A DNA stretch of 12,325 nt, from the IMG/VR virus record IMGVR_UViG_2778261463_000004, positions 1-12,325 of that record, one strand, 5' to 3'. Positions within the stretch are counted from its first letter, which is position 1. Every line of letters begins with the position of its first letter. This stretch comes from a virus. Its lineage: Duplodnaviria > Heunggongvirae > Uroviricota > Caudoviricetes. A program made the position numbers. Of this stretch, positions 6,001 through 9,000 are shown in pieces.

Positions 6001-9000
6001 TCACTGAGGCAGGACAGGCAACCGGACACCCGTTTGACAGCTTTCCCCCTGACATTCGGGCCCGTCAGCACATAGCGTGTATATTTTCCGTGTTTCCCGC
6101 AGGACACCGTCTCAGAACTTTGCACCCAATGCTCACAGCGCCACGGACGCTTTCCGCCACGGACAAATGCCAGTTCCTCTTCCAGGTCAGCCCTGCGGTT
6201 GAGTAACTGCGCTTTGTCGTATTGCATGTGTTGTTTGTTCAGGAAATTAGTCATTTTCACACCCCACAAAATCACCAGTTAAAGTTCGTTGAGCCGTAGT
6301 CCTGCTCACTGAATCCCGAGATCGGGAGGCTTTTGCCCCGCCCACCTCCGGGAGCGGCTGGCTGTTGCCAGAAGTCTTCGAAGTGACGATCGGGGCCAAA
6401 GAACGTCGCAGCCTGCTTCACGAACTGTGTGCCGGTATTTCCTGTCGCACGTACCCAGGCGGCATACCCCTTCACGCCATCAAGCATGGTCTCCGGTTTT
6501 ATTCCCTCCCTGATACGGGCTTTCCAGGCTTTGAAGGCTGCTGACTTGGAATTACCACCAGCACGTTTGGGATATTCCTGCCAGGCCTGTTCAAATTCCG
6601 GTGAATATTCCTGCCGGGCAGAGCGCGCTGGTGCAGACGCGTCAGCGGATGCGCCAATAGTGTTTTTAGTCTCCGTTGTAATCTCTGTAGTAATCTCTGT
6701 ATTTGTATCAACATTCGGCGTATCCCCTGTTCCGTTATGACGTTGGGGGGTGTTCCGTTTTAACGTAATAGCTGTGTCGCTGACTGTGTTATTGCTGTTG
6801 CTTTCTGACGAAACAGAAGAAGGTGTGGTGATGGCAGCAACTGCCTGTGGGTTGATCCCGACAAACAAAATATTGCTGCATTTCACACCATCGAGCATTT
6901 CCACAGTGCGTAAATCCAGGGTAATAAAACCGGCATCCCGCAGACGCTTCAGCGCATCTGCAGTTTCCCTTTTCCCGAAACCAAACTGCTCAGCAAACGC
7001 CTGATAGCTTCTTTGCAGCTTGTCCCCCTGAAAACGCTTGCGATATCCCAGCAAAGCCCCGGTATGCTCATCCCGGACTTCTGTCGGGCGGTACCAATAA
7101 ACGATCTCTGAGAGCAGGGCGATAGCGGTCGCATCCGGACGACCACTGGGTAGCCGAATATGTTTCCACCAGTTCGCTGGTGTGACATTGCCGGAAATAT
7201 TAATCTGCCCAATAGCCATAACTTCCGGTGTGGGGGCGTAACGACTCATACAGCCTCCTTACGCGGCATAACAATGGTGTAACCCCGGGCAGGCTGGAGC
7301 CGGGCTTTTGCATCAATAGTGAGCGTTGCAATTTTACGGATACGCAGATACCCCGCCCTTTCCAGGGCCAGGGTTTCTCTGAACATTGCCTGTTTTGAAC
7401 AGCAACAAAAATCGGCAAGGACCTGGTGATCAATAACCCTCTCACCTTCACCGTCTGAAGAACCCGACATCAAAACACGCAACATAATCAGGCGCTGAAT
7501 CGGATTATCGAAAACACTTCCGCATACAAACTGAAAACAGTTCACACAGCACCTCCCAGGCGTTTAAACATTTTTCCGGACTGAAACGCCACCAGCGGAT
7601 AACTCAGGGTATGAGTACGTCCCTGAACCTGACAGACAACCTTCTGGCTTTCTGTATTGACCAGGCAAACCCGCAGAACGTGGCCGTTGCTGGTGGTGAA
7701 CCACTGCCCCACACGGGGGCAACGGTTGTATCGGTGATACAGGAAATTAACGATGCGGCGAATCATGGATGTACCTCCTGCACATCAGCCATGATCATTT
7801 TGCTGGCTGTTTCCAGCGCCCGGTCGGAGCTAATTTGCATGACAGCCAGTGAATGAGGAACGAAAGCCCCGGCATATTCTGTTTCACTGGTGGCGTGCTT
7901 ATGCGCCCTGTCTGCAATAACAGAGATGTCAATAAGCGCATCCATCAGGGTTTTAATTACCGTAGCGGCCGTCTCTGAATAATGGTTATTACACATGGCG
8001 AGCCTCCCGTTGATTACGACGGAAAGTGGAGTTATTCAGGCTGTTCTCTGCCTCATGGAATGCTTCAAGGCAGCTCTCGTAGTACCGCATTGTGCGTAGA
8101 CTTAACCCAAGCTGAAGCATCATCAGGCCATCAAGGGTGATGTAATAACCACGCAGGGAGTCACCATAGATGTGGTAAGTACCCGGTATAAAGTTGCGGG
8201 TAAAAAATTCGCGCGAGCAGTTCAGATACTCGATTTTGTCGACGATGTTCTGGTGCATGCGCTTAAAGTGGCAGGCAACATGCAGGGAGAAAATAACAGC
8301 TTTGCCGTTGACGACTTCGATTTTGAGGAATGGGGAAGTTGGGACTGTAGCCATGATGGCAGCCTCCTTGATCGGTGAAAAACTTCCACCACCGGAGCTG
8401 CGAAACTCATGGGTGGTGAACTGAACAGGGTTCGCAGTACCGGCGATCAAGGAAACCGGCGAGCCTTTCGGCTCCCCTGCCCAGCCCACCATAATTCTGG
8501 CGTGCATGAGCGCAGACGATAAAAAAGACGCTGGCGCGTCGTATATCGCCTTGATCAATTCCGGGCTGCGACCCCCGGCACCCGCTTTATAAGGTGCTGG
8601 AACAGTGTAACGTCCCGAAATTGCAGAATCAATATTTAGGCTTGAAACATTCATATGCTTACTGGTATTTTTACTAACGCAAATGTTCTTGGATGTTACT
8701 GGCTTACTTCTTTGTGAAGTTGCCTTTACCAACGTTGAGCGAGCCGGGTCACTACCCGGCTTTTTTTCACCGCTGCCAACCAATAACCTGAAATAACCCC
8801 ATTTTCGGGTGATACCAGCGAGTCCCTCGCGGTTCTGCTTCCTCCATTACCCGATAAAAAGCAGCCATAAACGGTTCCACAGCAACAATTGCGCGACGTG
8901 ACAACAATCCGTCCGGCGTCATGAACTCGTGGGTGTCTGTAGGAATTTGATAAGCGTTCACCAGATTGCGGCATTTATCATCTGACAAACCGGTTTTCGC

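Follow-up and report, generated by a model that had tools for sequence, protein, structure and literature searches.

A candidate plus-strand small RNA in the spacer between a Rha-family gene and the isrK promoter of a lambdoid prophage

Introduction

The OOP RNA of phages lambda and P22 is a 77-nucleotide (nt) RNA that is antisense to cII and c1, respectively. It is a short RNA directed against the early rightward operon, driven by its own promoter and ended by an intrinsic terminator; in the P22 record, the oop promoter is located at 32346-32374, its terminator at 32277-32319 and c1 at 32036-32314. The sar RNA of P22 (15021-15090; 68-70 nt) has its terminator right at the stop codon of arc, the upstream gene, which ends at 15022, and its promoter inside the antirepressor gene ant; the RNA starts next to the ATG of ant (15091) and covers its ribosome-binding site. 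A further known arrangement is isrK-orf45-anrP of Gifsy-1, which is related to immI of P1 (c4-icd-ant) and to seqA-CI of P4 (PMC4825925). Here we analysed a 12,325-nt stretch of Caudoviricetes DNA (positions 1 to 12,325 of the IMG/VR record IMGVR_UViG_2778261463_000004; hereafter the window), which represents the early region of a lambdoid prophage and in which the spacer between a Rha-family regulator gene and an isrK promoter may encode a small RNA of its own.

The explanation favoured here, to which we assign a probability of about one half, is that this spacer encodes a plus-strand small RNA of ~88-91 nt. The candidate would probably belong to the phage antisense or small RNAs that are bounded by their own promoter and intrinsic terminator, and, judged from its sequence, it is a plausible new phage small RNA, previously undescribed as far as we found, whose function is predicted. 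An earlier note on the same DNA had proposed a plus-strand promoter-terminator unit for a short RNA opposed to the early rightward operon, and the anatomy described below supports such a unit.

Results

A plus-strand terminator at the end of the Rha-family gene

The 3′ boundary of the candidate unit is a hairpin with a perfect 8-bp stem, in which AGCCGGGT (8742-8749) pairs with ACCCGGCT (8754-8761) around the loop CACT, six of the pairs being G-C, and whose energy is about −15 kcal mol−1. On the plus strand this G+C-rich stem-loop is followed by a T7 run that ends at 8767, in the TGA stop codon (8767-8769) of the upstream minus-strand Rha-family gene, and on the minus strand A7 precedes the hairpin and CGCTCAACG follows it; thus the hairpin has the form of an intrinsic terminator on the plus strand only. 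The earlier note had recognized both the terminator and this polarity, which the flanking sequences bear out, but had placed it at 8732-8757, 10 nt too low, and the true T7 run in part falls outside the span of 8640-8760 that it gave for the whole unit. Under strict criteria (at least seven perfect pairs, at least five of them G-C, a loop of 3-6 nt and at least six T in the next seven positions), this hairpin is the sole intrinsic terminator on either strand of the 12.3-kb window, and any such site occurred in just 1 of 300 dinucleotide-preserving shuffles of the whole window. In a loose scan, which returned 24 sites in the window versus 13 expected, it ranked first.

A candidate extended −10 promoter upstream of the terminator

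Upstream on the same strand are a −35 hexamer TTGAAA and, after 18 nt, a −10 hexamer TATTTT, exactly at the coordinates that the earlier note had given, and the −10 hexamer is in addition preceded by the TG of an extended −10 element (Table 1). Based on the density of promoter-like sites, a same-strand site would fall in the ~90 nt before the terminator with a probability of ~0.05, and one with the TG with a probability of ~0.01. The −10 element is located outside every well-supported coding sequence. A transcript initiated at the predicted start would extend from ~8676-8679 to ~8765-8768, that is, over 88-91 nt, which retains the short plus-strand unit proposed before but not its length of ~80 nt. 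No LexA box or CII-type activator repeats were seen at the promoter on inspection of the window sequence by eye. A small plus-strand open reading frame (ORF) was considered for the same interval and rejected: the only ATG (8683) is without a ribosome-binding site and is CTG in one of the spacer types described below (type B).

Conservation of the complete unit among related prophages

Of 5426 complete Escherichia coli genomes, 268-338 contained the spacer, which was invariably chromosomal and had a median copy number of one; it was also found in Stx2a-converting phages, ASU11 and PhiR49_2, and ~90 IMG/VR contigs. Judging from this number of matching genomes, typical O157:H7 strains appear to be without the spacer; differential RNA sequencing and Term-seq data exist for O157:H7 Sakai (PMC7547250). 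A total of 99 loci from E. coli genomes and IMG/VR represented 27 distinct spacer sequences, which were grouped into three types: A (that of the window; 16 loci), B (73 loci) and C (10 loci). Type A is carried, for instance, by E. coli SE11 (NC_011415.1, 2159342-2159477), and type B by O111:H- 11128 (NC_013364.1, around 2433000) and by O145:H28 RM13516, O26:H11 and ST131 strains. All three types keep TTGAAA, 18 nt, TGnTAT(T/C)TT, a GTTCTTGGAT box near the 5′ end of the predicted RNA, a middle hairpin and the terminator with T6-T8, and the complete unit was present in 99 of the 99 loci. Exceptions at the −35 hexamer are TTGGAA in one locus (L049) and a changed base flanking the hexamer in another (L050), and the −10 element of type B reads TGaTATCTT, with the TG, the A at position 2 and the T at position 6 kept.

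When types A and B were aligned over 111 columns upstream of the terminator, 50 columns differed, yet these include only 1 of the 14 promoter positions, as compared with 49 of the 97 other columns (Fisher p = 0.0017). With the comparison confined to the ungapped promoter stretch, 1 of 14 element positions and 8 of 16 spacer positions differed (p = 0.013). The 14 positions tested were those set in the earlier note from a single sequence.

No partial version of the unit was found, as searches anchored on the hairpin arm, on the box plus the hairpin or on the promoter plus the box returned essentially the same loci. Moreover, the unit is kept amid reshuffled flanks, which comprise 17 cro/cI clusters, 13 isrK clusters, 15 C4 clusters and 27 downstream clusters. 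Among distant homologues of the Rha-family gene (13 loci from Yersinia, Providencia, Proteus, Atlantibacter, Budvicia and others; 54-74% protein identity), none carried the spacer, the hairpin or isrK, and the next gene overlaps the stop codon; the hairpin is therefore not inherent to the Rha-family gene. No deep covariation was gained from these distant homologues, and no recurrent antisense terminator upstream of the isrK promoter was found elsewhere (Stx1 phages, SfV, 2H10, ST64B, VT2-Sakai, PA8, L116 and L121). An origin of the spacer as a relic of the 3′ end of another gene was rejected, with no other context for it in the phage collection.

One alternative is that the unit arose by chance, or is the relic of a mosaic junction and functionless on both strands. 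This would agree with the confinement of the spacer to one E. coli prophage lineage and with the distant Rha-family homologues that have no spacer at all, but it is hard to reconcile with the terminator statistics, with the pattern of conserved versus variable columns and with a complete unit in 99 loci whose flanks are reshuffled; we regard it as highly improbable.

Internal anatomy and fold of the predicted RNA

The predicted RNA consists of a conserved 5′ box, a stem-loop, a U-rich linker and the terminator with U7, and its plus-strand fold has a z-score of −4.1. The box is single-stranded in the predicted transcript, where it reads GUUCUUGGAU. Across the three types the GTTCTTGGAT box lies 7 to 13 nt past the −10 hexamer, and the sequences that flank it have diverged, with insertions and deletions. 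The hairpins were folded singly, RNAalifold on a MAFFT alignment being uninformative (type B is misaligned in the variable middle). The middle hairpin has the stem ACTTC/GAAGT inside GGC/GCC in type A and CTGC/GCAG in type C, with one compensatory double change from T-A to G-C between the two, and in type B an unrelated stem of ~10 bp is found at the same place. The order of promoter, seed, stem-loop, terminator and U tail is that of Hfq-type base-pairing small RNAs, a likeness of architecture only.

Single polymorphisms were examined for the strand on which they preserve pairing. In L117, a C-to-T change turns a C-G pair of the terminator stem into U-G, and in L069 an A is changed to G in the middle stem; both keep pairing on the plus strand only. 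The opposite strand is the subject of a second alternative, also raised in the earlier note, in which function resides in the minus-strand mRNA of the early operon. Its hairpin would stabilize the 3′ end of the cro-Rha message or act as a barrier to processing, and the remaining spacer would form a structured leader between the cistrons, possibly for translation from ATG 8654; the T run and promoter hexamers would be incidental. The minus strand indeed folds well (z = −3.0), the type B middle hairpin is more stable on that strand and two type-B polymorphisms pair only there; furthermore, the CAT corresponding to ATG 8654 is conserved, and start codons of the same frame occur at this point in other phages. 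However, a stabilizer needs no adjoining run of six to eight A, yet this run is always present; the L117 and L069 changes run counter to it, ATG 8654 is without a Shine-Dalgarno sequence, and the well-spaced extended −10 promoter would be a coincidence with an estimated chance of 0.01-0.05. We consider such a minus-strand element quite unlikely.

The 5′ end of the RNA, AAATGTTCTTGG (8681-8692), is complementary at 11 of 12 positions to CCTAGAACATTT (9793-9804) in the operator region. As a target of the 5′ box this site was rejected: it is a chance-level repeat in the operator/promoter region and is probably located upstream of both early transcription starts.

Gene context and the IsrK/C4 module

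Between 392 and 9734 all protein-coding ORFs are on the minus strand, as the earlier note had stated, and the spacer measures 112 bp from the stop codon of the Rha-family gene to the annotated ATG 8654 and 134 bp to the isrK promoter (Table 1). The upstream regulator protein matches Rha and winged-helix domains only. The element on the other side of the spacer is a true member of the IsrK/C4 family, with tandem Rfam matches above the gathering scores followed by a Rha-domain, antirepressor-like ORF; IsrK has a terminator of its own (stem 8540-8527, then T6). The IsrK and C4 pair was also found by Rfam in six related loci, and 369 phage records attest to a wide distribution of the module among lambdoid and Stx phages. 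The candidate and isrK promoters are arranged back to back, with their −35 hexamers 9 bp and their predicted starts ~80 bp apart.

The bodies of IsrK and C4 are highly variable among otherwise similar prophages (13 and 15 clusters, respectively; loci L024-L124). Their variants reassort freely with the three spacer types and with essentially one type of Rha-family gene, and this variability looks like that of specificity alleles of immunity RNAs.

Table 1. Coordinates of the candidate unit and of neighbouring features in the window
Feature	Position	Strand	Details
−35 hexamer TTGAAA, candidate promoter	8642-8647	+	Unchanged in 25 of 27 distinct spacer sequences (99 loci)
Extended −10 element TGgTATTTT, candidate promoter	8663-8671	+	TG at 8663-8664; TATTTT at 8666-8671, 18 nt after the −35 hexamer
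Predicted transcription start	8676-8679	+	From the usual spacing of 6-8 nt after the −10 hexamer
Conserved 5′ box GTTCTTGGAT, candidate seed/recognition sequence	8685-8694	+	Near-invariant in the three spacer types
Middle stem-loop SL1	8701-8724	+	GGC..ACTTC / TTTGT / GAAGT.GCC
Terminator stem-loop SL2	8742-8761	+	8-bp stem, loop CACT
T7 tract, expected RNA 3′ end	8761-8767	+	T6 to T8 in related loci
LexA-like repressor	9854-10546	+	
PR-like promoter	9785-9757	−	
cro-like gene, YdaS family	ending at 9471	−	
Upstream Rha-family / winged-helix regulator	9474-8767	−	TGA 8767-8769 abuts the T tract; RefSeq 'Rha family transcriptional regulator'
isrK promoter	8632-8604	−	TTGATT 8632-8627, 17 nt, TACACT 8609-8604; upstream of Rfam isrK position 1 (8597)
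IsrK RNA	8597-8521	−	Rfam RF01394, 57.6 bits versus gathering score 50
C4 antisense RNA	8496-8409	−	Rfam RF01695, 85 bits versus gathering score 45
Rha-domain (AnrP-like) protein	7989-8354	−	ATG 8354 (most likely start), AAGGAGG at 8369-8363
DnaC-like replication gene	6275-5364	−	
DnaB-like replication gene	5406-3967	−	
RusA	3713-3354	−	
Q antiterminator	3363-2668	−	

The target of the predicted RNA

According to the earlier note, the RNA would be antisense to the leader and the start of a downstream Rha-domain gene, taken as 7989-8654. RefSeq likewise places a coding sequence there, an 'ash family protein' from ATG 8654, without any RNA gene. Its Pfam Ash match (PF10554; residues 59-150 of the ORF 7989-8783, that is, nt 8609-8334) coincides with IsrK and C4, and the Rha domain begins at residue 166 of the long ORF. 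Because the Rfam IsrK and C4 matches lie within it, the 5′ end of this gene is largely an RNA region. The Rha-domain protein itself most likely starts at ATG 8354, from which a product of 121 residues is encoded with a Rha-domain match of 27.4 bits, just below the Pfam cut-off of 29.9. As for the Ash region, either it may be dual-coding or the protein family may have been built from translated RNA genes.

The predicted RNA start (~8677) is located 23 nt upstream of ATG 8654, and the RNA would therefore cover no start codon and no ribosome-binding site. It would reach into the upstream gene by one or two terminal bases of the stop codon at the most, and transcripts of the isrK promoter, which start at 8597, have no sequence in common with it. 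The only RNA to which the candidate could be antisense is thus early-operon mRNA that continues past the Rha-family gene. An antisense RNA of the OOP or sar type that blocks translation of the downstream Rha-domain gene, or triggers its decay, by acting on its leader and start could appeal to the RefSeq start at ATG 8654 and to the −35 hexamer, which falls within the first codons from this ATG much as the sar promoter falls in P22 ant. With the start codon uncovered and devoid of a Shine-Dalgarno sequence, IsrK and C4 in the place of the presumed coding region (8597-8409), the Ash match coinciding with them, a strong start of its own for the Rha domain at 8354 and no sequence shared with the isrK-promoter transcripts, the chance that this version is correct is small.

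Several side observations concern the Ash frame. In-frame ATGs at 8507 and 8492, just past the IsrK terminator, resemble the starts of orf45 in Gifsy-1 (PMC4825925), and in the window no stop codon separates the frame of 8507/8492 from the Rha-domain protein. Other phages keep the Ash frame open, with a start codon ~5 codons before 'NIDSAISGRYT', in the isrK promoter region. A strong ribosome-binding site for this frame, GGGAGGTG...ATG, is found in L116 and L124, and in phiP27 and SfV the Ash-frame start overlaps the stop codon of the upstream gene.

Comparison with OOP, sar and a unit in phiP27

The order of genes in the window (repressor, cro-like gene, Rha-family gene, candidate unit and replication genes) is as in the OOP systems, and the parallel with lambda OOP drawn in the earlier note holds for this position between the second early gene and the replication genes. 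It does not extend to coding overlap or homology: OOP overlaps ~40-50 nt of the 3′ end of cII or c1, as compared with the last base or two of a stop codon here, and the gene upstream of the candidate is a Rha-family regulator rather than a homologue of CII. No sequence likeness to P22 oop was evident, a comparison that was not model-based since Rfam gave no OOP match even on P22.

With sar the candidate shares a terminator that abuts the upstream stop codon and a promoter at the beginning of the downstream antirepressor-encoding unit, and it is of similar size (~90 nt versus 68-70 nt). It differs in that it starts beyond the annotated ATG, leaves the ribosome-binding site uncovered and has the isrK promoter as the next functional feature. 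No match to the Rfam sar model (RF00262) was found in 8300-9100 at E values up to 10, whereas the P22 positive control scored 97.8 bits. From IsrK and C4 the candidate RNA is distinguished by its opposite strand, its location upstream of the isrK promoter and the lack of shared sequence; furthermore, the unit is absent from the Gifsy-1-like, SfV, Stx1, ST64B, VT2-Sakai and PA8 contexts. By its sequence, the unit would thus be OOP-like in position and sar-like in layout, with homology to neither found (Rfam being no test of OOP homology), and one defining feature of each is missing, namely the overlap with an upstream coding end of OOP and the ribosome-binding site cover of sar.

A second candidate unit occupies this slot in phiP27 (L006), in which an inserted antirepressor gene, P27p15, takes the place of the spacer behind the same Rha-family gene. 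Right next to the stop codon lies an unrelated hairpin, GGCCGG...CCGGCC, then TTTCTTATTT (2699-2719 + TTTCTTATTT), which has the form of a terminator on the plus strand only. It is preceded by a promoter match, TTGATT (2635-2640), 18 nt and TGaTATTGT (to 2664), and the entire plus-strand unit (2635-2729) is unannotated. Its predicted start is at the GTG start codon of P27p15, and the predicted RNA of ~60 nt would run across the P27p15 ribosome-binding site, which is the geometry annotated for P22 sar; no Rfam sar match was obtained for the phiP27 unit, and the similarity between P27p15 and P22 Ant was not significant (BLASTP E = 0.29). The units of phiP27 and of the window agree in slot, strand, promoter architecture and a terminator abutting the stop codon, although the sequences are unrelated and the phiP27 RNA is shorter. 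As two unrelated sequences in one slot share polarity and promoter architecture, a plus-strand function is likelier than an accident.

The same comparison bears on the possibility that the hairpin is an insulating terminator and nothing else, which would stop stray plus-strand transcription before the Rha-family, cro-like and repressor genes and leave the short RNA a functionless by-product. Stray transcription could stem from divergent initiation at the AT-rich isrK promoter region or from antisense starts further downstream. An insulator would be expected to be a strong, plus-strand-only terminator positioned precisely where the gene ends, and it would agree with the different plus-strand terminator that phiP27 has at this boundary and with the failure to find an RNA target in the window or related loci. 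What it leaves unexplained is the selective conservation of the −35 hexamer, the TG, the −10 hexamer and the 5′ box, the middle hairpin with its kept structure and changed sequence, and why no such terminator is present in other phages that have the isrK promoter in other contexts. On this evidence we consider a pure insulator unlikely.

Discussion

In the favoured explanation, from promoter firing and transcript ends to function, a sigma-70 extended −10 promoter (8642-8671) would fire away from the isrK promoter, and the RNA would start near 8677 and stop at the intrinsic terminator (8742-8767), at the stop codon of the upstream gene. It would be fully complementary to the intercistronic part of PR read-through transcripts, which lead from the Rha-family gene into the isrK-C4-antirepressor-replication block, and its simplest role would be to pair with these early transcripts. 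Cleavage of the duplex, as with OOP, or interference by convergent transcription may then reduce the leakage of early transcripts into the antirepressor module, a logic that would be that of lambda OOP and P22 sar. The terminator may also keep plus-strand polymerases from transcribing the Rha-family and cro-like genes in antisense on the way to the repressor gene, and the 5′ box may in addition serve as a seed for a target elsewhere.

A number of points weigh against this explanation. The homologues are all closely related E. coli prophage sequences of one lineage, and the block from the hairpin into the Rha-family gene is near-identical at every locus, so that conservation of the hairpin and the T run largely reflects shared ancestry. 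The promoter match on its own is at chance level (15 promoter-like sites versus 15.2 expected), and the conserved promoter positions correspond to −45 to −75 of the isrK promoter and to the surroundings of the conserved ATG 8654; they might therefore be under another constraint. Two type-B variants pair better on the minus strand, and the wobble and mismatch polymorphisms are altogether mixed and do not settle the strand, those of types A and C pointing to plus and the two B variants to minus. Searches of Rfam at gathering and permissive thresholds gave no family for the candidate RNA, just weak terminator-like matches (AS-pc01, 18.9 bits; SorY, 15.1 bits), and a literature search returned no paper with either hairpin sequence. 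Finally, no target of the 5′ box above chance was found in the window or in ~97 related loci, and a cis-antisense role leaves the sequence conservation of the box unexplained. The conserved sequence could point to a further target in trans or to a site bound by a protein.

A broader and more speculative arrangement, which we hold to be doubtful, is that the candidate RNA, IsrK and C4 form a three-RNA control hub for the antirepressor/replication block in a widespread E. coli prophage group that includes Stx2a phages. The stem-loops of types A, B and C would then determine the specificity of pairing with the early read-through transcript of the phage itself, comparable to the incompatibility groups of plasmid antisense systems, and the invariant box would find a trans target in the host or the phage.

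If the RNA is made, it would be the third regulatory RNA of the IsrK/C4 antirepressor switch. Its carriers include Stx2a-converting phages and prophages of O26, O111, O103, O145, ST131 and enterotoxigenic E. coli (ETEC). Through its location at the entry of early lytic transcription into the antirepressor and replication genes, the unit could have an effect on spontaneous induction. For annotation, three probable RNA genes go unrecorded where RefSeq gives the 'ash family protein'.

Other features of the window

Three further observations were made around the repressor gene. A perfect palindrome, TATCGGAAAGCCGATA (9806-9821), in the interval that separates the repressor gene from the PR-like promoter probably serves as an operator. 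The repressor gene is followed by a plus-strand terminator (10569-10586, then T8), after which a promoter match of 11/12 (10616-10644; TTGACA, 17 nt, TATTAT) precedes a plus-strand helix-turn-helix gene. At the other end of the early region, a symmetric bidirectional terminator that also reads on the plus strand, AAAACCCGC TTGT GGGCGGGTTTT (2581-2604), is found downstream of the Q antiterminator gene, together with a minus-strand promoter match of 10/12 (2756-2729; TGGATA, 16 nt, TATAAT). These two may represent the late promoter and the first terminator, the site at which Stx phages get a short RNA of the StxS type.

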